This document shows, piece by piece, positions 2,784 to 63,936 of a DNA stretch of 64,000 bases (position 1 is the first letter of the stretch; each line of letters opens with the position of its first letter). Source of the DNA: a virus. Taxonomy: Duplodnaviria > Heunggongvirae > Uroviricota > Caudoviricetes. The notes beneath the pieces were generated by a model. The model did not search any database. It was not told the DNA's origin and was given only the letters and a program-made list of their open reading frames with translations. A program made the position numbers and the translations under genes. Where the stretch lies: positions 30,666-94,665 of the IMG/VR virus record IMGVR_UViG_3300031712_000052; one strand, 5' to 3'.

Positions 2784-3383
2784 ATGGCCTATGTAACAGA
2801 GGGACATTCAGGATCAAGTGGACCCGCAGGACCATCAGGGCCATCTGGACCAGCAGGAGCACAAGGGCCATCAGGAGTACAGGGACCGTCAGGAGTGTCT
2901 GGACCTTCGGGACCGTCTGTATCAGGACCGTCAGGACCAGCAGGAGCACAAGGACCGTCAGGAGTGTCTGGACCTTCGGGACCGTCTGTATCAGGACCGT
3001 CAGGACCAGCAGGAGCACAAGGACCGTCAGGACCAGCAGGAGCATCCTCAACTGAGGCATTGGTACAGGGGCCCAATTTGGGGAATGCCGATGTAACATT
3101 TCATCCCGGTATAGACTGTGCCAGTCTATACGAGATACCTGCTGGCACTATGACGGGACCTCACAATTACAAAGCAGGTAATGATGGTACTATACCAAAC
3201 AACTTAGATGTATTTATCGTGTGTCGCGATCTGAGTACGAATGTCCCTACCATACTAAATGGTGGGGAAGGACTAGGGGTGTTATCAGCTTTTCCGGGCA
3301 CTAGACCAAGTCCTATGGGTATGTGGATACACTGGGATGGGACCAATTGGTACTGTGATAGTATTGTATGGATTAAGCCATGA
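2784..3383 (+). CDS. Collagen-like repeat protein. It has Gly-Pro-Ser/Gly-Pro-Ala triplets and a C-terminal globular domain, and is tail-fibre or decoration-like.
   Basis: AAGGAG RBS, then ATG 2784. About 30 uninterrupted G-X-Y triplets. Two tandem 69-bp DNA repeat units span 2886-3023, and partial upstream copies extend the motif toward about 2835. Confidence 0.7.
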   Translation: MAYVTEGHSGSSGPAGPSGPSGPAGAQGPSGVQGPSGVSGPSGPSVSGPSGPAGAQGPSGVSGPSGPSVSGPSGPAGAQGPSGPAGASSTEALVQGPNLGNADVTFHPGIDCASLYEIPAGTMTGPHNYKAGNDGTIPNNLDVFIVCRDLSTNVPTILNGGEGLGVLSAFPGTRPSPMGMWIHWDGTNWYCDSIVWIKP

Positions 3384-19803: not shown

Positions 19804-21207
19804 TCATCCTCGTATTGGTGGTAATGTTAGCAGAGATGTGGCCACCTTGTCATATGCTGCTGGACCGAAAGATTTGATCCAAACTTTCTGGCCGTCAGAG
19901 AAGCGCTCGATAGTCTGCGCCACATTCTCTGGCGTGGCATGGCCTAGGTCTGTATAGTGTGGACTGTAGCCGTTGAGTACTCTTGTTCTGCTGTACATAT
20001 CTTCGTTCATGAGTGTACGTGCTACCACATCTGCATGCTTGGAATAGCCAGCATCCAAGTACTCGTCTGAGTAGGTCCACACACTCCCCCTATCTACTTG
20101 ATCTAAGTGCGTGATGGCCAGGCCATCTATGGGTAGGTCTTCGTAGCACCTATCTAGTGCATACTTGTGTAGGCTCATGTCAAAGAATCCAGTACGTAGA
20201 GCACCCTGCCATCTATTTTCCGGGTTATGCTTATCTGCAAATCTGTTTGTCTGGACACTGCTGAATGTGGGAAAGGGGCCAGGTCCGTGTCTTGTGGGGT
20301 AGGCTCGTACTACCCCTATCATGTGTAGCTTGAGCTTCATGAACGGGGCTACATTCATGATGTTCGTACCGGTGGTCTTGCTCCACGTGTTGTACGGAGC
20401 AAAGCCCCAGTCCTCATCTATCAGCACACCTTGAGCTCCTTCAAAGATGACAGCATCTGTTTCGTTGATCAATGGATCAATCATGCTCGTAGACCAGATG
20501 TTGTTGGGATTGATGGCGGAGCTCATCAGGTCAGCTATCACATCTACATTCTTGTCCATGGCCAGTACTGTGAGCCACTTGTTGTGGGTTATACGATCTT
20601 CAAAAGGCATGGGCTCAAGGATAGGTATTCTAGAGACCTCGATTCTTATCACATCCCGCAGAATTTGTAGCTTCATCCTCAGAAGGGGCGAAGATCCCAT
20701 GTGCCCCAGCAGATCTTTGGCCCGTATAGTCGTCATCTCAGAAACAACATCTCCACCCCATTCAGCCTGGGAAAGTCGTATGGTCTCTCCAAAACCTACT
20801 CCGCAGCTTCCATTTCTACTACTTCCCCTAGATAGCTCACGGATGCAATTCAAAGCTTGGTGATATGGAGTAGTGACCAAGCAGTTCTCATGTATGATCA
20901 GATTCTCCATTGGGTTTTCTACACCCAAGCTTTCCAGGTGCTTTGCTTCCGCCTGAAGGGCTATTGGGTGTATGGCTACATCCTGAGACAGGACTGTTTT
21001 AACTCCCGGCACAAGAGAGCCGCTACCGAACTGAGAGAATGTGTGGTGTCTACCATCAGGGGTCACCACATTGTGACCAGCTTGAGCTCCGCCATTGAAG
21101 CGGACCACAAGTTTGGCACCAGTATGTCGGGTAAGGAAATCAACGATGGTACCCTTACCAGAGTCGCCGAATCCTAGATCTACTACGCCGTATGCAATAC
21201 GACTCAT
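19804..21207 (-). CDS. purA-like: Adenylosuccinate synthetase family protein. This is a PurA homologue and a candidate PurZ-type enzyme.
   Basis: GFGDSGKGTIVD matches the PurA P-loop GDEGKGK, and FNGGAQAGHNVV matches GGxNAGHT. ATG 21207 overlaps the upstream stop as ATGA. Confidence 0.75.
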   Translation of the reverse strand: MSRIAYGVVDLGFGDSGKGTIVDFLTRHTGAKLVVRFNGGAQAGHNVVTPDGRHHTFSQFGSGSLVPGVKTVLSQDVAIHPIALQAEAKHLESLGVENPMENLIIHENCLVTTPYHQALNCIRELSRGSSRNGSCGVGFGETIRLSQAEWGGDVVSEMTTIRAKDLLGHMGSSPLLRMKLQILRDVIRIEVSRIPILEPMPFEDRITHNKWLTVLAMDKNVDVIADLMSSAINPNNIWSTSMIDPLINETDAVIFEGAQGVLIDEDWGFAPYNTWSKTTGTNIMNVAPFMKLKLHMIGVVRAYPTRHGPGPFPTFSSVQTNRFADKHNPENRWQGALRTGFFDMSLHKYALDRCYEDLPIDGLAITHLDQVDRGSVWTYSDEYLDAGYSKHADVVARTLMNEDMYSRTRVLNGYSPHYTDLGHATPENVAQTIERFSDGQKVWIKSFGPAAYDKVATSLLTLPPIRG

Positions 21208-21731
21208 TGATCTTTCCTTCCTGTCATAGCAAATCCCCATTTCTTCCGTTCTGCTTGTGTTTGTTGCGGGTAGAAGGAGAAGCAGTCTCTGAATGCTTCC
21301 TTCATTGCTTTCGCAGCTCTGTTATCTGGGCAATACGAGCAGATTGCAAATAGTGGTTCAGTGCAGTTGACTCCGTAGTTCAAACCCATCAGATACGCAG
21401 ATGATTTTATCAATAACTCATGGTGAATAGAGTTGGGGGTTTGGAATCGATCTTCCTTTGGTGTTGGGTCAATACCTACATAGAACCTGTGGTTTCGGAA
21501 GTAGTAGGCTTGAAACGCATAAGCGCACCCAATGTCTACTATGACCCTGTTGCGCGGAATGATGTTGGATAGGTGTCTGTAGATATCTATGAAACCTACA
21601 AAGGTGGGGTCTATGTCTCCATGATCTTCGATTTGGGCCCACACCCTTTTGAACTCCTTCGGGTATGCTTTGCATATCTTCTTCAGAAGAGTAGCAGTCA
21701 TTACATCGTGTCTGTGTTGCTTTTTTGACAT
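21204..21731 (-). CDS. Hypothetical protein with a possible Rossmann-like VIVDIGCAYA motif.
   Basis: 175-aa ORF. The motif match is weak. Confidence 0.4.
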   Translation of the reverse strand: MSKKQHRHDVMTATLLKKICKAYPKEFKRVWAQIEDHGDIDPTFVGFIDIYRHLSNIIPRNRVIVDIGCAYAFQAYYFRNHRFYVGIDPTPKEDRFQTPNSIHHELLIKSSAYLMGLNYGVNCTEPLFAICSYCPDNRAAKAMKEAFRDCFSFYPQQTQAERKKWGFAMTGRKDQ

Positions 21732-36179: not shown

Positions 36180-36842
36180 TTAGCAACCTCCCATCAAGAG
36201 GCCACGGGGAAGAACAGGATTCCACATAGGTAGTTCTCCTACTCCCTCGCACTTGGTGCACGTATAGCAGTCAATGTACTTGCCCTTCACCAACATGAGC
36301 CCATGGCATGTCTGGCATCTATTCGTCCAGCTCCTTTCCACATGCCAGCCTGTACCCTTGCATGGGTAGCACACTCCGATCTTTTTGCCATTCTTCGAGA
36401 ACTCCCCAGTACCTCCACATTTGCGGCACTTGTACTCGTACCTACCACCTATGCGGGCGTGGTGGAAGAGAACAGAAGACCCAAAGTTAGTTCGGCAATC
36501 GGGACAAGGTTTATACAGCTGGTGGACAGTTCTGTACCCTACTCCATGGCATTCACCGCAAGCAATGCCGTTGGTTGTAGGCCCTAGACCTTTGCCTAGC
36601 TTTGCTAGCTCATCGCCCTCTTCGGTGTGGGTGACTGTTGCTATCTCTTGCTCAACTATGGTGGTGTCGTCCTTGAGCAAGGTATAGGCTTCATTCACCC
36701 TAGCAAAGCGTTCTTTGGCTTGTGGGTGTTTGCTTATGTCTGGGTGTTCAAGCTTAGAGAAACGGCGGTAGGCAGTCTTTAGAGCATTAGCTGTTGTGGG
36801 TGTTGTCAGTTGCAGTAACTTCAGTGCTTCTACTACGTTCAT
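36180..36842 (-). CDS. dnaJ-like: DnaJ-like co-chaperone. It has a J-domain HPD motif and CxxCxGxG zinc-finger repeats.
   Basis: J-domain KLEHPDISKHPQAKERF. Zinc-finger repeats CGECHGVGY, CPDC, CRKCGGTGE, CYPCKGTGW, CQTCHG and CTKCEGVGE. Confidence 0.7.
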   Translation of the reverse strand: MNVVEALKLLQLTTPTTANALKTAYRRFSKLEHPDISKHPQAKERFARVNEAYTLLKDDTTIVEQEIATVTHTEEGDELAKLGKGLGPTTNGIACGECHGVGYRTVHQLYKPCPDCRTNFGSSVLFHHARIGGRYEYKCRKCGGTGEFSKNGKKIGVCYPCKGTGWHVERSWTNRCQTCHGLMLVKGKYIDCYTCTKCEGVGELPMWNPVLPRGLLMGGC

Positions 36843-37908: not shown

Positions 37909-38910
37909 CTGTACCTACTTCTTTGTGTCTTTAGCTATTGTTACACAGTGAATCTAGATATAACCCGAGAGCGTTTTTCACTGTACCTACTTCTTTGCTT
38001 CTCTACTCATTGTTACGTATCTTGAACCCCAGCGTGGACACTCGGCCTGAAACTGTACCTACTTCTTTGTTTCTCTACTCATTGTTGATTCTTGCGGTGG
38101 CTTGCTGTACCTACTTCTTTGCTTACGTGTACGCGAACCCAGTTAGCTATCTGTACCTACTTCTTTGCTTCTTCTAACCCGTCGATTTTGCTGTACCTAC
38201 TTCTTTGTTTCTACATTAGTTGTTACGGCGTCGTGTCCAACCCGAAAGGTGACTGTACCTACTTCTTTGCTTCTCTACGCATTGTTACTCGGGCACCGAA
38301 CTCTTCTCATCCTGTACCTACTTCTTTGCTTCTATACCCATTGTTACGACCCATGCAGCTTTCTTCGGGGTGAACCCGTGGACTGTACCTACTTCCTTGT
38401 TTCTCTACTCATTGTTACAGGGTGACCAACCTGTGTTTCCTTTGCCGCCGTCTTCTGTACCTACTTCTTTGTTTCTTGGTTATCCCGTTTGTGGCACTTG
38501 TATGTCTTCTGCCTGTACCTACTTTTTTGCTTCTTTAGCCATTGTTACTTGTCCGACGGTCACACGGCAGAAAGCAGGAAATCATCTGTACCTACTTCTT
38601 TGTTTCTCGACTCATTGTTACATCCCCAAAGGCCGTTCCCAAGCGCACCAACACTCTGTACCTACTTCCTTGTTTCTCGACTCATTGTTACGTGGCCGTA
38701 ACAATGACAGCGGCACCGAGCCGGGCTGCTGTACCTACTTCTTTGTTTCTCTACTCATTGTTACCTGGGCGTGCCGCTGGTGGCCCTGTTCAGAAAGCCA
38801 CCTGTACCTACTTCTTTGTTTCTCTACTCATTGTTACCTAGTTGCCTTTGATTCTTTGGGTAGACTGCAGTCGACTGTACCTACTTCTTTGTTTCTCTAC
38901 TCATTGTTAC
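37909..38910 (-). CRISPR. CRISPR array. It has a 36-nt repeat, 13 full copies, 3 truncated copies and 15 unique spacers of roughly 16-37 nt.
   Basis: Repeats start at 37909 (degenerate), 37981, 38053, 38105 (20-nt fragment), 38151 (20-nt fragment), 38191, 38253, 38312, 38383, 38455 (22-nt fragment), 38513, 38586, 38656, 38729, 38802 and 38875. The three copies at the high-coordinate end are identical. The strand is inferred from the polymorphism gradient and the cas operon direction. Confidence 0.9.
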
Positions 38911-38959: not shown

Positions 38960-39011
38960 GAGCACCTCAGATTTGCTGGTAATGAAGCCAGTTATCAAAT
39001 CTGAGGTGCTC
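38960..39011. terminator. Long perfect hairpin, GAGCACCTCAGATTTG...CAAATCTGAGGTGCTC, between the 194-aa gene stop and the array.
   Basis: 16-bp inverted repeat with a 20-nt loop. It could be a terminator or a processing element. Confidence 0.45.
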
Positions 39012-39017
39012 GCTATG

Positions 39018-39602
39018 TTACTGCTTGCTCAACTTCTCTTTGAACTTCTCCACCTTCTCCTCGGCCACCTCGGCTCTCTTCTCTGCCGCGAGCCTCTTTC
39101 TCTTCTCTTCCTTGAGCTGTTTCTCAAGGTCCTTGATGATTTCGTGTAGCCTCGCGGTCTCTGACTGCTTCCCACCCACTCCAACCTTAGGAGCCACTAC
39201 CTTTGACACCATCCTGGTGACTGCCTCTGTGGATGGTTTCCTACCCCTTTCCTCATACCACTGCTCAAGCTGGGTCATCATGTCCTTCTCTACACGCGAG
39301 TCGGGCGGTAGACGAATACATGTGATAGCCGACTCCACCCCATACTTCAGCACCCACTCTCTCCCAAAGCGTTCGAGGGCTGTGCCTAGCCGCTTGAACT
39401 TTGCTGGGGACCAAGAGAACTCAGTCTCCAAGCAGTCTCCAAAGGTGCCGTACTTGACTTTCCAGAGCTCATTGTCCCTGAGATTCTCACAGACGTAGTC
39501 GTAGAACTTCAGGATGAACTCATCTGGCTTGAGGAGGAAAGACCTTGCAGTGGTGATGACTGCTATGAACTTCTCTACCAATCTGTCTCCTACATTACTC
39601 AT
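39018..39602 (-). CDS. Unknown 194-aa protein, translationally coupled to the Cas12-like gene. It has a C-terminal Lys/Glu coiled-coil tail.
   Basis: Its ATG overlaps the stop of the upstream gene by 4 nt. It lies between the effector gene and the array. Confidence 0.55.
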   Translation of the reverse strand: MSNVGDRLVEKFIAVITTARSFLLKPDEFILKFYDYVCENLRDNELWKVKYGTFGDCLETEFSWSPAKFKRLGTALERFGREWVLKYGVESAITCIRLPPDSRVEKDMMTQLEQWYEERGRKPSTEAVTRMVSKVVAPKVGVGGKQSETARLHEIIKDLEKQLKEEKRKRLAAEKRAEVAEEKVEKFKEKLSKQ

Positions 39603-41275
39603 CGTGTGTCCCTTTCAGCTTTAGTCTTTGGGGGTTTCTTCCCTTTCATCTTTCCTTTGGATGCCTCGTTCAATGTCTGTTGCAACTCTTCACGTACCAG
39701 CCAATACCTGCTGTTCTGGGGCAGGTCTACCTTTTTGGCCAGGCTCAAGTCTATGATCGCATTTTCAATTGCGATGCGATCTATGTGGCCACTGTAGGTG
39801 CACTTGACACAGTTGAAGCGCCAATTCTTGAAGTCCAAGGCAGCCTCATTGAGGCTGCCACAGCTAGGGCATCGGCGGGTGTGGTAGAAGGTCTTGAACT
39901 TCTCAACCTCCACACCATGTTTGGCTGCGTCCTGGGTGACGTAGTCAACAATCTTGAACCAAGGTGCTTGGTGCACCGCCACCTTGATCCACGGGTCAAG
40001 GTCTGACTCCTCAGCTCTCTTTCGGATGTTCCTGAGCTCAGGAAGCCAGATCTTACTGCGTGTGTTTATCGCCTTGCCCACAATGCGAGCCGCTACCTTC
40101 CTGCAGAAACTGTCCACCACCTCGGCCTCATCATTGTCTAGCTTGAACCTGTTGACTTGATACATGTGCCCTTTACCAGGCACTCGAAGCTGGCTGCATC
40201 TCTGAATCTCTTTCCGTCTGGCACGAATACGCCCTCTCCTCGCAGCGAAACCATCACCAAACACCCAGAACCCCTGGCTCCTATTGAGAGCCTCCTCCAC
40301 TGTGAGAGCCACTGTGAATACCTTCAACCCACAGTGAACTATGATGTTGTTCTTCACTGCTAGCACTGGTGGCTTGGGTCGGCGGTACTGAAGGAGGACA
40401 AACCACTTATTGTCCTCACGATACAGACCCATAGTGCCTGGAGCCCAGACATCCTGAGTGGGTACAGCAGTGGCTAGGTCTTTCCTGAGGTATTCTCCCG
40501 CTGCAACTCTACTCAGAACTCCACGCACGTAGTTGTCTTGCTTGGCTTTCCTCAACCTCAAGGCCAAGTTCCACCATGTCCCATCCAAGTTCACCGATAT
40601 GTTCATGCCATCTCTGCGTGAGAACCTCCAGCCGGTAGGACGAAGCCACACAGGCCAGCTGTCCTTGATGTTCATTACCGACTCTTCACCTATGGCGACT
40701 TTCTTGAGACTCTTGGTGAATGCCTCCGCAAGTCGGCGTGACATTGCACCAGTGACGGAGGAGCTGACTTGTGGCACACGTTCCTCATCCATCCCTCCCA
40801 CCAGTTCTCTGCCCACGACCCTATAGGCGAGTGTGCCCAGCACCTCTCGCTCATCCGCTCTTGGCTCCAGCCTCACTCTCTTCTTCTTTTCAGGGTCTTG
40901 CTGGGTTGTGTCCAGGGCTGGAAGCGGCTTGTCCAGGTTGAGCCACATGCTTCGTATGGCGGCATTGCCAGCTATCCTCACCCTCTTCTGGATGAGGGTA
41001 AGTACACGAAAAAACGCTCTAGCGATTGTCCTTGGTTCTTCGAGAACCGGGGGTGCGTTTTCGATCTTCTTGCCGTTCTTGTCTTTGGGTGATACCCAAA
41101 CCTTGGGTAGCCAGGCATGCTTGCCACCTGCTACCGGAATAAAGTGTTCTCTCTTTTCCGGTACGTCACTGAGGAAAGAGATGGGATCTTTGCACCTGTC
41201 CAATGCTGTAGCTACCTCGAGTTTGAGGATGCCCAGCATCTCATGCTTTCTCTTCTCACGAGTTGCTTTGTTCAT
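39599..41275 (-). CDS. cas12-like: Compact 558-aa type V Cas12/TnpB-like RuvC nuclease with a zinc ribbon.
   Basis: RuvC-II IWLPELRNI. Zinc ribbon CPSCG...CVKC. RuvC-III GHIDRIAIENAI matches the TnpB/Cas12 HADxNAAxNI motif. The candidate RuvC-I is ISVNLDGTWWNLAL. AAGGAA RBS. Confidence 0.75.
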   Translation of the reverse strand: MNKATREKRKHEMLGILKLEVATALDRCKDPISFLSDVPEKREHFIPVAGGKHAWLPKVWVSPKDKNGKKIENAPPVLEEPRTIARAFFRVLTLIQKRVRIAGNAAIRSMWLNLDKPLPALDTTQQDPEKKKRVRLEPRADEREVLGTLAYRVVGRELVGGMDEERVPQVSSSVTGAMSRRLAEAFTKSLKKVAIGEESVMNIKDSWPVWLRPTGWRFSRRDGMNISVNLDGTWWNLALRLRKAKQDNYVRGVLSRVAAGEYLRKDLATAVPTQDVWAPGTMGLYREDNKWFVLLQYRRPKPPVLAVKNNIIVHCGLKVFTVALTVEEALNRSQGFWVFGDGFAARRGRIRARRKEIQRCSQLRVPGKGHMYQVNRFKLDNDEAEVVDSFCRKVAARIVGKAINTRSKIWLPELRNIRKRAEESDLDPWIKVAVHQAPWFKIVDYVTQDAAKHGVEVEKFKTFYHTRRCPSCGSLNEAALDFKNWRFNCVKCTYSGHIDRIAIENAIIDLSLAKKVDLPQNSRYWLVREELQQTLNEASKGKMKGKKPPKTKAERDTR

Positions 41276-41298: not shown

Positions 41299-41560
41299 TG
41301 TTGATCTAAATGAATGGCTGCATGTAAGATGAGGTTACCAAAGAAGTAGGTAGTCCCTGAACTAGTCAGGAACGCATGGTAGCTAGCTTGCGCTAGTACC
41401 TCAGCAGAGCGGCTCGCGGGAGTGAAATCCGGCGACTTCTCCGCTATTGGGCCGTGCCATCGACCCCTCACGCTTTAGATCATAGCTGAACTAGTCAACC
41501 AGACCCTAGGCATGGGTGGTGCCTCACCCCTCACATGCAGCCATTCATTCAGATCAACAG
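41299..41560 (-). ncRNA. Candidate structured ncRNA, tracrRNA-like, or a MITE-like element. It is bounded by about 38-bp imperfect inverted repeats and contains a 14-nt anti-repeat at 41339-41352.
   Basis: The segment at 41299-41336 is the inverse complement of 41522-41560. CAAAGAAGTAGGTA at 41339-41352 is the inverse complement of repeat nucleotides 4-17. Internal direct repeats are CTGAACTAGTCA x2 and CCCCTCAC x2. Confidence 0.35.
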
Positions 41561-41620: not shown

Positions 41621-41648
41621 GGGCAAAAGAAAGGCCAATGCCTTTCTC
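41621..41648 (-). terminator. Minus-strand rho-independent terminator, AGAAAGGC-ATTG-GCCTTTCT followed by TTTT.
   Basis: 8-bp stem followed by a T-run on the minus strand. It is flanked by a second hairpin at 41651-41681. Confidence 0.5.
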
Positions 41649-41705: not shown

Positions 41706-42179
41706 CTACAACTGTACCTTTCTACTCTTACGTGGCCGGGGAGAGTAAGAGGTATGCGATGCTCTCCTACTGATGTCCATGAGCTGTCTGAGCCTTTCAG
41801 GTGTGATGTCCCTATCATTGATCAGGCCAGCTCTCCTCAAGCCTTTAGCTACCTTGGCCACAGCATTGACCTCGAGTTGTCTAACACGTTCGCGGGTGAC
41901 ACCAAGAGTGATACCTACTTCATTCAAGGTATGGTCTCTGGTGGTCAGCTTCAGTACGCATGGCTGCCCCCGCTGCTTGGTTAGGGCTGTATCCCTGGCA
42001 TCATGTGCTATGTGATACCTGCAATACTTGAGTGGGCAGATACCACTCTTGCTGAGACATTGACCATCGGTGACTTCGAAGATGTTCTCAGGGTCTATGT
42101 GGTCTGGTACTGAGTCCAGGCGTTCATTCTCTTCCACTCTATTGGCTGCAGCCAATAGACCTACTTCATCATCAATCAT
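41706..42179 (-). CDS. Sigma-70 region-4-like HTH protein, a small sigma factor or transcription regulator.
   Basis: TLNEVGITLGVTRERVRQLEVNAVAKV matches the sigma r4.2 consensus TLEEVG..GVTRERIRQIE.KAL.KL. Confidence 0.6.
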   Translation of the reverse strand: MIDDEVGLLAAANRVEENERLDSVPDHIDPENIFEVTDGQCLSKSGICPLKYCRYHIAHDARDTALTKQRGQPCVLKLTTRDHTLNEVGITLGVTRERVRQLEVNAVAKVAKGLRRAGLINDRDITPERLRQLMDISRRASHTSYSPRPRKSRKVQL

Positions 42180-63627: not shown

Positions 63628-63706
63628 GGGCAGGACGCGCTAAGGTAGCCATGGTGTCTGTAAAACACTTGCTTCGGCACAGTGGGTTCGATTCCCACCC
63701 GGCCCA
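63628..63706 (+). tRNA. tRNA-Tyr with anticodon GTA and a long variable arm. The D-arm and acceptor pairing are imperfect.
   Basis: Anticodon stem GGTGT/ACACT, loop CTGTAAA, T-arm GTGGG-TTCGATT-CCCAC. One A-G mismatch in the acceptor stem. Confidence 0.55.
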
Positions 63707-63717
63707 CATGATCGTAA

Positions 63718-63789
63718 GTCGCTCTAACTCAACGGCAGAGGGTCAGCCTTTTAAGCTGATGGTTGTGGGTTCAAATCCCACGGGCGACA
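63718..63789 (+). tRNA. tRNA-Lys with anticodon TTT.
   Basis: Acceptor GTCGCTC/GGGCGAC, anticodon stem TCAGC/GCTGA, loop CTTTTAA, T-loop TTCAAAT. Confidence 0.75.
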
Positions 63790-63805
63790 CGAAAACAGAA
63801 TATAT

Positions 63806-63878
63806 GCTGCTCTAACTCAATTGGAAGAGAGCCTGGCCCTTACCCAGGTGGTTGTGGGTTCGAGTCCCACGGGCAGCA
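63806..63878 (+). tRNA. tRNA with anticodon CTT, Lys-like and carrying C33.
   Basis: Acceptor GCTGCTC/GGGCAGC, anticodon stem CCTGG/CCAGG, loop CCCTTAC, T-loop TTCGAGT. Confidence 0.6.
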
Positions 63879-63936
63879 CGAATCTTTGACAATGTAATAG
63901 TTGATCATGCGGCGGAGGAAACCACCTCCGCATTAT

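Follow-up and report, generated by a model that had tools for sequence, protein, structure and literature searches.

Organization of the locus

The window, i.e. the whole stretch of 64,000 nucleotides of phage DNA that was analysed, contains a module consisting of a tracrRNA-like RNA, an effector gene, a gene for a partner protein of about 200 aa and a CRISPR array; this module is conserved among phages. The features of the locus, with an adjacent sigma-like ORF, are the following:

37909..38910, minus strand: CRISPR array of 16 units; repeat GTAACAATGAGTAGAGAAACAAAGAAGTAGGTACAG, spacers 34-37 nt
39018..39602, minus strand: partner gene (194 aa); the AlphaFold model consists of helices only and has a coiled coil at the C-terminus
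39599..41275, minus strand: effector gene, a Cas12f-like ORF of 558 aa
41338..41353, minus strand: anti-repeat CTACCTACTTCTTTGG, then GTAAC, complementary to the 3' portion of the repeat
41399..41469, minus strand: structured RNA, tracrRNA-like, that precedes the effector gene; it comprises a hairpin and a stem of 7+2 bp
41706..42179, minus strand: sigma-like ORF, 157 aa, with sigma-70 region 4 only

Neither a transposase next to the effector gene nor adaptation genes in the vicinity of the locus were seen.

Domain architecture and affiliation of the effector

A sequence-only reading had taken the ORF at 39599-41275, which is present as described, for a TnpB/Cas12-type RNA-guided effector, and the sequence, profile and fold matches to Cas12f bear this out. 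Its domains are arranged in the order WED, REC helices (residues 84-194), WED (209-300), RuvC (309 onward), zinc-finger TNB and RuvC-III. PF07282 matches residues 439-503 (Pfam, E 2.8e-8), the PADLOC models for Cas12f and Cas12u3 match with 1.7e-25 and 2.9e-25, and the profile of the effector family finds Cas12f structures among the PDB sequences with E-values from 2.4e-19 to 4e-9, in the register that puts His314 on the RuvC-I Asp. The fold is likewise that of Cas12f: for the AlphaFold model, which describes the monomer only (pLDDT 81.9), the best Foldseek matches are all Cas12f, with AsCas12f at the top (1e-18). Sequence, profile and fold thus agree on Cas12f (AsCas12f, SpCas12f1, CnCas12f1, Un1Cas12f1) as the best match.

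The effector shares with Cas12f its sequence and fold homology (WED-REC-WED-RuvC-TNB layout, within the range of 400-700 aa), the CCCC zinc finger, the adjacent CRISPR array and a predicted tracrRNA whose anti-repeat pairs with the repeat, as well as a 5' T-containing flank at one protospacer. What sets it apart is the RuvC triad: Cas12f has an intact Asp-Glu-Asp and cleaves DNA, whereas the effector has His314, Pro412 and Asp499 (in the family His, Met/Pro/Ala/Gly and Asp/Glu). It further differs in a family-specific SDLP insertion, in the conserved partner gene and in its phage-genome context with no adaptation genes seen nearby.

TnpB genes are accompanied by TnpA, by element ends and by a single omega RNA that overlaps the 3' end of the gene. 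Membership in the TnpB group (IS200/IS605, IS607) is rejected: there is no adjacent transposase, and what accompanies the gene is a CRISPR array together with a tracrRNA-like RNA upstream. The NCBIfam model guided_TnpB matches at 9e-12, which is under its curated cut-off, and IS200_TnpB reaches 17.5 bits against a cut-off of 425.

An exhaustive representative search yields full-length family proteins in twelve 50%-identity clusters, which have invariant motifs in common. Word-indexed homologue searches with the effector recovered the protein itself alone, and a scan of IMG/VR for its relatives found none.

Identification of the RuvC-I motif

The RuvC-related elements of the effector, together with a second RuvC-I candidate, are located as follows:

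residues 226-239, nt 40559..40600, minus strand: candidate 1 segment ISVNLDGTWWNLAL, a WED-domain beta-hairpin
residues 310-324, nt 40304..40348, minus strand: RuvC-I segment NIIVHCGLKVFTVAL, with His314 (nt 40334-40336) at the position of the catalytic Asp
residues 409-420, nt 40016..40051, minus strand: RuvC-II segment IWLPELRNIRKR, with Pro412 in the Glu column and Glu413 at +1
residues S424-D425-L426-D427, 39995..40006, minus strand: family-specific insertion (consensus SDLP)
Cys469, Cys472, Cys489 and Cys492, 39800..39871, minus strand: CCCC zinc finger of the TNB domain
residues 497-507, nt 39755..39787, minus strand: RuvC-III, HIDRIAIENAI, with Asp499 kept

The sequence-only reading held that RuvC-I is one of two segments and that the choice bears on nuclease activity, and both points stand. 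Each segment is present in the sequence, the first at residues 226-239 as given, the second one residue further on (310-324) than the 309-323 assigned to it; the distances of 182 aa from 231 to 413 and of 99 aa from 314 to 413 are likewise correct.

The choice is resolved in favor of NIIVHCGLKVFTVAL by phmmer, profile matches, profile-profile alignment and the order of the predicted strands. In phmmer alignments to 8hr5 and 9nzq, His314 falls on the RuvC-I Asp, and phmmer and the family profile pair NIIVHCGLKVFTVAL with DLGLK, GVDMG and IDLG of Cas12f structures. The profile-profile alignment (hhalign) against nine canonical D-E-D relatives, with a probability of 99.85% and E 1.6e-30, sets VHCGL opposite vDLGv, in which the template Asp is invariant. 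A conserved 'KWF/KWY' strand precedes NIIVHCGLKVFTVAL, and the V-D-L-G of Cas12f lies opposite this segment in every alignment. In the AlphaFold model, the strands 309-314 and 321-325 come after the KWF hairpin and are succeeded by a strand at 336-338, helices, a strand at 407-412 and a helix from 498. Both checks proposed with the earlier reading, profile-profile alignment and structure prediction, thus place RuvC-I at 310-324, and its observation of a His in place of the catalytic Asp holds: the 'DL' of the GIDLG motif is replaced by His314 and Cys315. All 11 family members whose sequences extend over position 314 have His there.

Segment ISVNLDGTWWNLAL bears a superficial likeness to GIDLG...NLA, and Asp231 is kept in 10 of the 11 members, so that one could take Asp231 for the RuvC-I residue of a CasPhi-like enzyme with an insertion of about 180 aa and an intact Asp-Glu-Asp triad. 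The alignments refute this proposal, and we give it practically no credence. Every comparison of sequence, profile and fold puts 226-239 in the WED domain: AlphaFold predicts strands at 225-229 and 234-240, and phmmer and hhalign set the segment opposite WED strands of CnCas12f1 and of the canonical relatives. The region is kept across the family as NIAFNxDGTWWExGL. A loose 5-mer pattern for RuvC-I, which is found in 10.7% of shuffles of the effector protein, fits ISVNLDGTWWNLAL only when Asn229, not Asp231, is taken as the Asp; its resemblance to RuvC-I is no better than chance.

Because ISVNLDGTWWNLAL is a WED beta-hairpin, there is neither a CasPhi-like spacing nor a 190-aa insertion. The stretch that had been read as such an insertion, or as a REC/lid analogue, consists between 240 and 309 of strands and helices that are usual for a WED domain, and the REC helices are found at 84-194. 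The N-terminal region, thought to be very short at 225 aa, extends over 309 aa before the real RuvC-I, which is normal for the Cas12f group of 400-700 aa. The CasPhi-like reading also fails on homology, since the family profile gives E 2e-19 for Cas12f vs E 0.73 for CasPhi-3 (at 7odf) and Foldseek finds CasPhi structures at 1e-4 (7m5o) and 7e-6 (7odf), far below Cas12f. Membership in CasPhi / Cas12j is rejected on these grounds and on the I-to-II spacing, which is 98 aa with RuvC-I at 314 and the Glu column at 412, compared with about 180-210 aa.

Substitutions at RuvC-II and the state of the active site

The substitution at RuvC-II extends across the family. Glu413 had been proposed as the RuvC-II residue; in family-wide alignments, the catalytic Glu column is that of Pro412, with Met in seven members, Pro in two, and Ala and Gly in one each. 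Outside the family, this column contains Glu in 53 of 61 sequences in total (E44/D4 in a wider metagenomic clade of Cas12f-like proteins, E9 in the canonical relatives). The profile-profile alignment sets 'I~~m~l' opposite 'IqmE~L', and Glu413 is paired with the catalytic Glu only in the pairwise alignment to CnCas12f1. Column 413 varies between T, A, S, D and E in the family and is Asp elsewhere, and hence Glu413 is not under selection. The columns of the SDLP insertion, in which Asp425 is invariant, are gaps in the Cas12f-like relatives. The four Cys of the zinc finger are invariant or almost so, and column 499 is Asp or Glu throughout the family. Asp499 at RuvC-III is the only acidic residue kept among the three RuvC positions; with His314 for the RuvC-I Asp and Pro412 for the RuvC-II Glu, canonical two-metal DNA hydrolysis is predicted to be lost.

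TnpB and Fanzor provide examples of rearranged RuvC sites, and the effector could in the same manner still be a nuclease that uses a site His314-Glu413-Asp499 or His314-Asp425-Asp499 and cuts DNA or its own pre-crRNA. The invariance of His314, the always acidic column 499, the invariant Asp425 within a family-specific insertion, and the position of Glu413 beside the Glu column speak for such a site; in principle, Glu413 or Asp425 could rebuild an acidic center, which we count against a purely binding function. In characterized Cas12 and Cas9 enzymes, on the other hand, a change from Asp to His or Asn at RuvC-I abolishes activity, and Glu413 is not maintained in the family. The His-Asp-Asp triad of Cas12m2 binds one Mg2+ and the non-target strand without cleavage and silences by binding, and restoration of Asp-Glu-Asp does not rescue cleavage (PMC10442227). 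A residual nuclease is for these reasons an improbable explanation.

CRISPR array and guide RNAs

The repeat search finds 16 matches vs 0 expected, and several units of the array are reduced to the last 20-22 nt (3' end) of the repeat. In the loci L004, L006, L008 and L009, related arrays share the strand of the effector; overall, five loci possess a same-strand array. Four contigs of the same phage carry identical arrays, so that no spacer turnover is observed.

Spacer 1 is the only spacer with a target found: it matches 37/37 nt of contig L016 (Ga0265330_10000261, 38.9 kb), next to a 5'-TTC (flank 5'-GTTC) on the side that is expected for type V. The composition of this contig is foreign (GC 59% vs 49.5%, tetranucleotide r 0.04), and the protospacer sits within a coding region, not in a promoter. 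No spacer matches the window itself, and none matches the phages of INPHARED; seven spacers match nothing in IMG/VR, two nothing in GTDB genomes and one nothing in metagenomes.

The tracrRNA-like scaffold is found in 9/9 loci. RNAalifold predicts 14 pairs, 10 of which show compensatory changes, and 96.8% of the scaffold cells are paired, compared with 78% in shuffles (0/500 reach the observed value) and 30-42% when the partners are slid; Rfam contains no family that matches the structured RNA. The anti-repeat, 62 nt before the effector ATG, is the best non-array RNAduplex match in the window. In L004, L006 and L008, it recurs at the corresponding place on the same strand, each copy being complementary to its own repeat; in all four loci, the anti-repeat covaries with the repeat.

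With two of three catalytic residues gone, the gene might be regarded as a decaying remnant of TnpB/Cas12f without function. This is very hard to reconcile with full-length ORFs and invariant motifs in 12 divergent lineages, with an RNA scaffold, anti-repeat and arrays that co-vary, and with the conserved partner gene and the perfect protospacer match, and we deem it highly implausible.

The partner gene and the sigma-like ORF

The start of the partner gene overlaps the effector stop by 4 nt, and the two genes are translationally coupled here; homologues of the partner adjoin the effector in 7/7 loci that have downstream sequence. The AlphaFold model of the partner was built on a 4-sequence alignment (pLDDT 79.7). 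Searches against Pfam, PHROG, PADLOC and PDB folds give no match, including to any sigma factor, HTH domain or nuclease. The gene is missing from the one wider-clade locus examined, whose effector keeps the RuvC-II Glu. Because the fold is unrecognisable, the contribution of the partner is a guess; we would expect it to add to or modulate the output of the system.

The sigma-like ORF matches PF04545 (2.4e-8) and the sigma factor family phrog_351. It is followed by a terminator-like hairpin at 41624-41646, which separates it from the module, and no counterpart was found in the loci of the relatives. On these two grounds we exclude it as a conserved component of the module; its link to the module is uncertain.

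These neighbors give rise to a second explanation, according to which the effector serves mainly for targeting and the real output comes from the partner or, in this phage, from the neighboring protein with sigma-70 region 4. This output might consist in RNA-guided activation of transcription, as with dCas12f-sigmaE, in bringing in a host factor or in some other DNA transaction. The constant adjacency of the partner, its absence beside an effector with an intact RuvC-II Glu, the position of the sigma region-4 ORF directly upstream in the phage of the window, and the precedent of dCas12f-sigmaE for RNA-guided transcription (PMC13472631) are in line with it. However, the partner resembles no sigma factor, HTH domain, nuclease or other known fold, the sigma-like ORF is set off by the hairpin and not kept in relatives, and the sole protospacer, intragenic and foreign, is easier to explain by interference than by control over genes of the phage itself. 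We consider this explanation possible, though rather unlikely.

A model of guided binding

Based on the altered RuvC residues, binding without cutting is the most likely action of the effector on the DNA recognized by its guide RNAs. The whole reading, namely that the 558-aa protein is a divergent, phage-borne CRISPR effector of the Cas12f type (type V-F / V-U3-like), that its RuvC domain is degenerate and that it acts by guided binding without cleavage, is the one that we favor with some reservation. According to this model, the effector, which probably dimerizes as Cas12f does, would be guided by the crRNA:tracrRNA duplex to double-stranded DNA beside a PAM, where it would form a stable R-loop. 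Binding might then keep a competing element or a host locus from being transcribed or replicated. The conserved pair His314/Asp499 may bind a single metal ion and serve as a clamp on the displaced strand, comparable to His317/Asp579 of Cas12m2. Some observations count against the favored reading: a single protospacer was found and is intragenic rather than in a promoter, adaptation genes were not seen nearby, and the array shows no spacer turnover.

More tentatively, the family could represent a phage type V subtype undescribed before, in which a Cas12f-like protein that has lost two catalytic residues is guided by crRNA and tracrRNA and brings a dedicated coiled-coil partner of about 200 aa to foreign or host DNA, the former catalytic pocket being reused; we see this as a speculative extension. 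If true, phages would be able to control genes or shut out competitors in a programmable manner without cutting DNA, and the His314/Asp499 pocket, possibly with Asp425, would be a strand clamp or a new active site.

Relationship to known nuclease-inactive effectors

Similar to Cas12m2 (type V-M, formerly V-U1), the effector has a His at RuvC-I, an acidic residue kept at RuvC-III, a predicted loss of cleavage and a retained CRISPR array, and it is likely to silence by binding, as Cas12m2 does (PMC10442227). Membership in the Cas12m clade is nevertheless rejected, as sequence and fold matches are well below those to Cas12f: Foldseek finds Cas12m structures at 4e-7 to 2e-5 compared with 1e-18 for Cas12f, and the family profile matches UnCas12m4a with E 0.003 in the TNB domain only, Cas12m2 being absent at E<=1. 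Moreover, position II is Asp in Cas12m2 but hydrophobic or Pro in the effector family, and Cas12m uses crRNA alone, whereas the family has a conserved anti-repeat-bearing tracrRNA-like RNA upstream. The His at RuvC-I is a shared character, probably a convergent one.

A further parallel is offered by dCas12f-sigmaE and a CRISPR-associated cluster of dCas12f proteins (Hoffmann et al., PMC13472631). These Cas12f relatives are naturally nuclease-dead and have been co-opted to bind DNA; they have transcription-linked gene neighbors, and some of them are still CRISPR-associated. The dCas12f-sigmaE proteins are bacterial (Bacteroidota), co-evolve with sigmaE, have lost part of RuvC by C-terminal truncation and mostly lack arrays and tracrRNA, using single guide RNAs (PMC13472631). 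In contrast, members of the effector family are full length with zinc finger and RuvC-III, possess arrays and tracrRNA-like RNA, and occur on phage contigs with a different partner. Membership in dCas12f-sigmaE would call for a RuvC shortened at its C-terminus and for an ECF sigmaE that has a CTD extension, shares an operon with the effector and co-evolves with it; such membership is rejected, the sigma-like ORF here comprising region 4 only; the dCas12f structure 9n9c is a mid-rank Foldseek match (3e-11) with no sequence match to the effector.

TldR and Cas12k are likewise RNA-guided DNA binders of the TnpB/Cas12 lineage with an inactivated RuvC. TldR regulates host genes with a single omega-RNA-like guide and no array, and Cas12k works with Tn7-like transposition proteins; both contexts are absent at the effector locus. 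Each of these naturally nuclease-dead groups (Cas12m, Cas12k, TldR, dCas12f-sigmaE) has exposed a new use of RNA-guided DNA binding. The effector family would add a phage-encoded, array-bearing and tracrRNA-using version with predicted loss of cleavage, a conserved partner without recognisable fold, and a probably convergent acquisition of the Asp-to-His change of Cas12m2. A natural binding-only effector of 558 aa with a short minimal repeat could also serve as a compact CRISPRi scaffold.

In the wider metagenomic clade, whose members match Cas12f and not Cas12m, the RuvC-I position is His, Asn or Arg, while the Glu and Asp are retained. This pattern suggests a stepwise inactivation, which makes the evolution of binding-only effectors directly testable, and the Glu and Asp beside a His or Asn hint that some chemistry, e.g. 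RNA processing, is kept.

Assignment of the RuvC-I motif

The effector and the two candidate RuvC-I segments
39599-41275, minus strand: effector ORF, 558 aa
residues 226-239: candidate 1, ISVNLDGTWWNLAL, WED hairpin
residues 310-324: candidate 2, NIIVHCGLKVFTVAL, RuvC-I

The sequence-only reading had offered two segments of the Cas12f-like effector as RuvC-I; both exist as described, the second one residue away from its estimate, and the spacings to Glu413 (182 aa for candidate 1, 99 aa for candidate 2) are right. Candidate 1 is weak as a motif: the loose RuvC-I pentapeptide pattern occurs in about 11% of shuffles of the effector and fits here only with Asn229 in the place of the Asp. PADLOC models Cas12f and Cas12u3 match residues 88-505 (E ~1e-25), Pfam places a Cas12f1-like TNB domain at residues 439-503, and phmmer against PDB sequences sets His314 opposite the RuvC-I Asp of CnCas12f1 (DLGLK) and OsCas12f (GVDMG). 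Among 1.84 billion representatives, searched exhaustively, 12 proteins stand close to the effector (31-46% identity, 530-613 aa), and about 200 Cas12f/TnpB-like proteins follow beyond a gap. With the 12-protein profile, E values for Cas12f structures range from 2.4e-19 to 4e-9, with 'VHCGL' over 'VDLG' every time, against E 0.73 for CasPhi-3. A profile-profile alignment, proposed earlier as a check, matches nine Asp-Glu-Asp relatives over 372 columns (probability 99.85%, E 1.6e-30); it places His314 on the invariant Asp of the template and segment 226-239 among WED strands ahead of the 'GEY ... KWY' elements.

In the AlphaFold2 model (12-sequence alignment, pLDDT 81.9), strands and helices follow one another as expected: a long N-terminal strand, REC helices (84-194), WED strands (209-300, including a hairpin 225-229/234-240), RuvC beta1 (309-314) ending in His314, beta2 (321-325), long helices, a beta strand (407-412), a zinc finger and a helix starting at 498. 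Foldseek ranks AsCas12f, SpCas12f1, OsCas12f, CnCas12f1 and Un1Cas12f at the top (1e-18 to 1e-10), with lower scores for TnpB (~1e-9), Cas12m2 (~4e-7) and CasPhi (~1e-4). On the sequence, profile, profile-profile, model and Foldseek results, candidate 2 is therefore RuvC-I, and candidate 1 is a WED hairpin. The CasPhi-like site at Asp231 that the longer spacing had suggested has a negligible probability beside these placements, and the 190-aa insertion between motifs and the 'short' N-terminal region reported with it are artefacts of the wrong register.

Substitutions in the active site

Active-site columns were read from a 72-sequence alignment of the close family, a wider metagenomic clade and the canonical relatives. 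Column 314 is His in 11/11 members of the close family and His (24), Asn (23) or Arg (5) in the wider clade; Asp occurs in the canonical relatives only (n=9). The catalytic Glu column, occupied by Pro412 in the effector, holds Met (7), Pro (2), Ala (1) or Gly (1) in the close family, and Glu in 53 of the 61 other proteins. Glu413 lies opposite the Asp of the usual 'E-D-L', in a column that is not conserved in the close family (T/A/S/D/E); hhalign concurs, the sole exception being the pairwise CnCas12f1 alignment, which sets Glu413 on the catalytic Glu. The RuvC-III column (Asp499) is Asp or Glu in all sequences. These column states thus indicate that two of three carboxylates are gone from the effector by the family register, and at least one if the columns are read as generously as possible; DNA cleavage by the canonical two-metal route would not be expected. 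An invariant Asp425, 13 residues past the lost Glu, belongs to an 'SDLP' insertion specific to the family. We regard a non-canonical nuclease as unlikely. That the losses mark a pseudogene is very improbable.

Putative guide RNAs, array and partner gene

Elements around the effector
41706-42179, minus strand: sigma-like ORF, 157 aa, sigma-70 region 4 only (PF04545, 2.4e-8)
41469-41399, just 5' of the anti-repeat: structured scaffold element, in 9/9 loci
41353-41338, effector's strand, upstream of the effector: anti-repeat CTACCTACTTCTTTGG, then GTAAC
39018-39602, minus strand (the effector's), downstream: partner gene, 194 aa, start overlapping the effector stop
37909-38910, effector's strand, downstream: CRISPR array, 16 units

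The array has purine-rich 36-nt repeats and 34-37-nt spacers, and is identical across four near-identical contigs. The anti-repeat CTACCTACTTCTTTGG can base-pair with the 3' part of the repeat, which is conserved, and anti-repeats at the equivalent site in three relatives' loci (L004, L006, L008) each fit their own repeat. Across nine loci, the consensus structure of the scaffold comprises 14 pairs, of which 10 show compensatory changes; the share of paired cells is 96.8%, versus 78% in shuffles and 30-42% with partners slid. Rfam contains no similar family. This arrangement is that of a type V-F-like system with two RNAs, a tracrRNA and a crRNA.

Loci were obtained for eight close relatives, and downstream sequence is available for seven loci (the window and six relatives' contigs). 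Same-strand arrays with related repeats occur in 5/7 of these; the remaining two have no array within 8 kb. These two (L010 7288-8000, L011 7714-8000) carry effector, partner gene and a tracrRNA-like scaffold whose tail is rich in pyrimidines and resembles an anti-repeat; in L010 a hairpin and T-run follow this tail. In several array units the repeat is cut down to its 3' 20-22 nt (window 38105-38226 and 38455-38490, where spacers are shorter), which is precisely the stretch complementary to the anti-repeat; arrays of two relatives show the same irregularity (L006 2277-2962, L008 10271-10766).

The partner gene (about 175-217 aa) adjoins the effector in 7/7 loci and was not found in the one wider-clade locus examined. 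Its predicted structure consists entirely of helices and has a coiled coil at the C-terminus, and family and fold searches and PADLOC gave no match. Between its stop codon and the first repeat, within the presumed leader, lies a perfect 15-bp inverted repeat (AGCACCTCAGATTTG ... CAAATCTGAGGTGCT; window 38961-39010, minus strand) without a following T-run.

The sigma-like ORF directly upstream of the tracrRNA/effector unit is reminiscent of dCas12f-sigmaE RNA-guided transcription (PMC13472631). We set it aside as a component, since a terminator-like hairpin (41624-41646) follows it and it is not conserved in relatives' loci, and treat its position as coincidence.

Phage context and spacer targets

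The window is phage DNA, with a tail-sheath-like gene, a PurZ/PurA-like gene, tRNAs and many ORFan genes; the relatives lie on 80-130 kb contigs with phage-like content. The adenylosuccinate-synthetase homologue (19804-21240, minus strand; phrog_1211, annotated PurZ-type, 1.9e-67; PF00709, 3e-54) suggests that the phage may replace adenine by 2-aminoadenine ('Z' genome). Also encoded are a DnaJ-like protein with J domain and CXXCXGXG zinc repeats (36180-36842, minus strand) and, near the window end, three clustered tRNA genes (Tyr-GTA, Lys-TTT, Lys-CTT; 63628-63879, plus strand).

Most spacers had no target in the window itself, INPHARED phages, IMG/VR (seven spacers), GTDB genomes (two) or metagenomes (one). 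The spacer nearest the leader has a 37/37 match in L016, a 38.9-kb contig of a sister sample; the flanks of the site are not repeat sequence, and 5'-GTTC lies on the side typical of type V PAMs. The protospacer lies inside a 404-aa ORFan gene whose coding strand is complementary to the crRNA. GC content (59% versus 49.5%) and tetranucleotide r (0.04 versus 0.79-0.89 within the window) mark the contig as foreign. The array thus truly includes spacers of foreign origin, which fits a conflict with the host or another element. L016 also has paralogous ORFan genes (143-1357 and 2977-3306, both minus strand) sharing a C-terminal 'HTLVRT...LLWFRH...AAYVVP' region, neither with a Pfam or PHROG match.

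Proposed mode of action and relation to Cas12m

What is established is the fold, the register of the motifs, the substitutions throughout the family, the conservation of the RNA and gene partners and a single protospacer. We propose that crRNA:tracrRNA would guide the effector to a PAM-dependent R-loop without cleavage, the effect arising from target occupancy; His314 and Asp499 may clamp the strand through a single metal, with the partner perhaps modulating or supplying the output. A new function driven by the partner is a less likely alternative, for which the constant adjacency of the gene speaks. Cas12m2 sets a precedent for the conserved His: this protein, with the triad His317-Asp485-Asp579, binds one Mg2+ via His317 and Asp579, holds the non-target strand without cleavage and silences through tight binding; other Cas12m clades have HEK, HQK, NED or DND triads (PMC10442227).

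The effector family shares the conserved RuvC-I His with Cas12m2. The close family and the wider His/Asn clade match Cas12f structures (1e-13 to 1e-27), with no match to Cas12m in structure-sequence searches; judged by these matches they are not Cas12m, and the common His looks convergent. Nuclease-dead Cas12 relatives are already known (Cas12m, Cas12k, TldR, dCas12f, the CRISPR-linked dCas12f cluster), and such a protein is therefore, as a kind, not new. The searchable literature yielded no account of this family, and none of its database members carries a name. The family combines, in phages, a full-length Cas12f-like protein whose triad reads His, Met/Pro and Asp/Glu in that order with tracrRNA-like RNA, arrays and a coiled-coil partner that is conserved. 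Wider-clade proteins P0013-P0080 have His, Asn or Arg at RuvC-I (VHRG, INRG, LNFG, LRRG) and keep the RuvC-II Glu and RuvC-III Asp; one of them, P0021, has CRISPR arrays on either side (L012 5455-5711 and 7725-8327).
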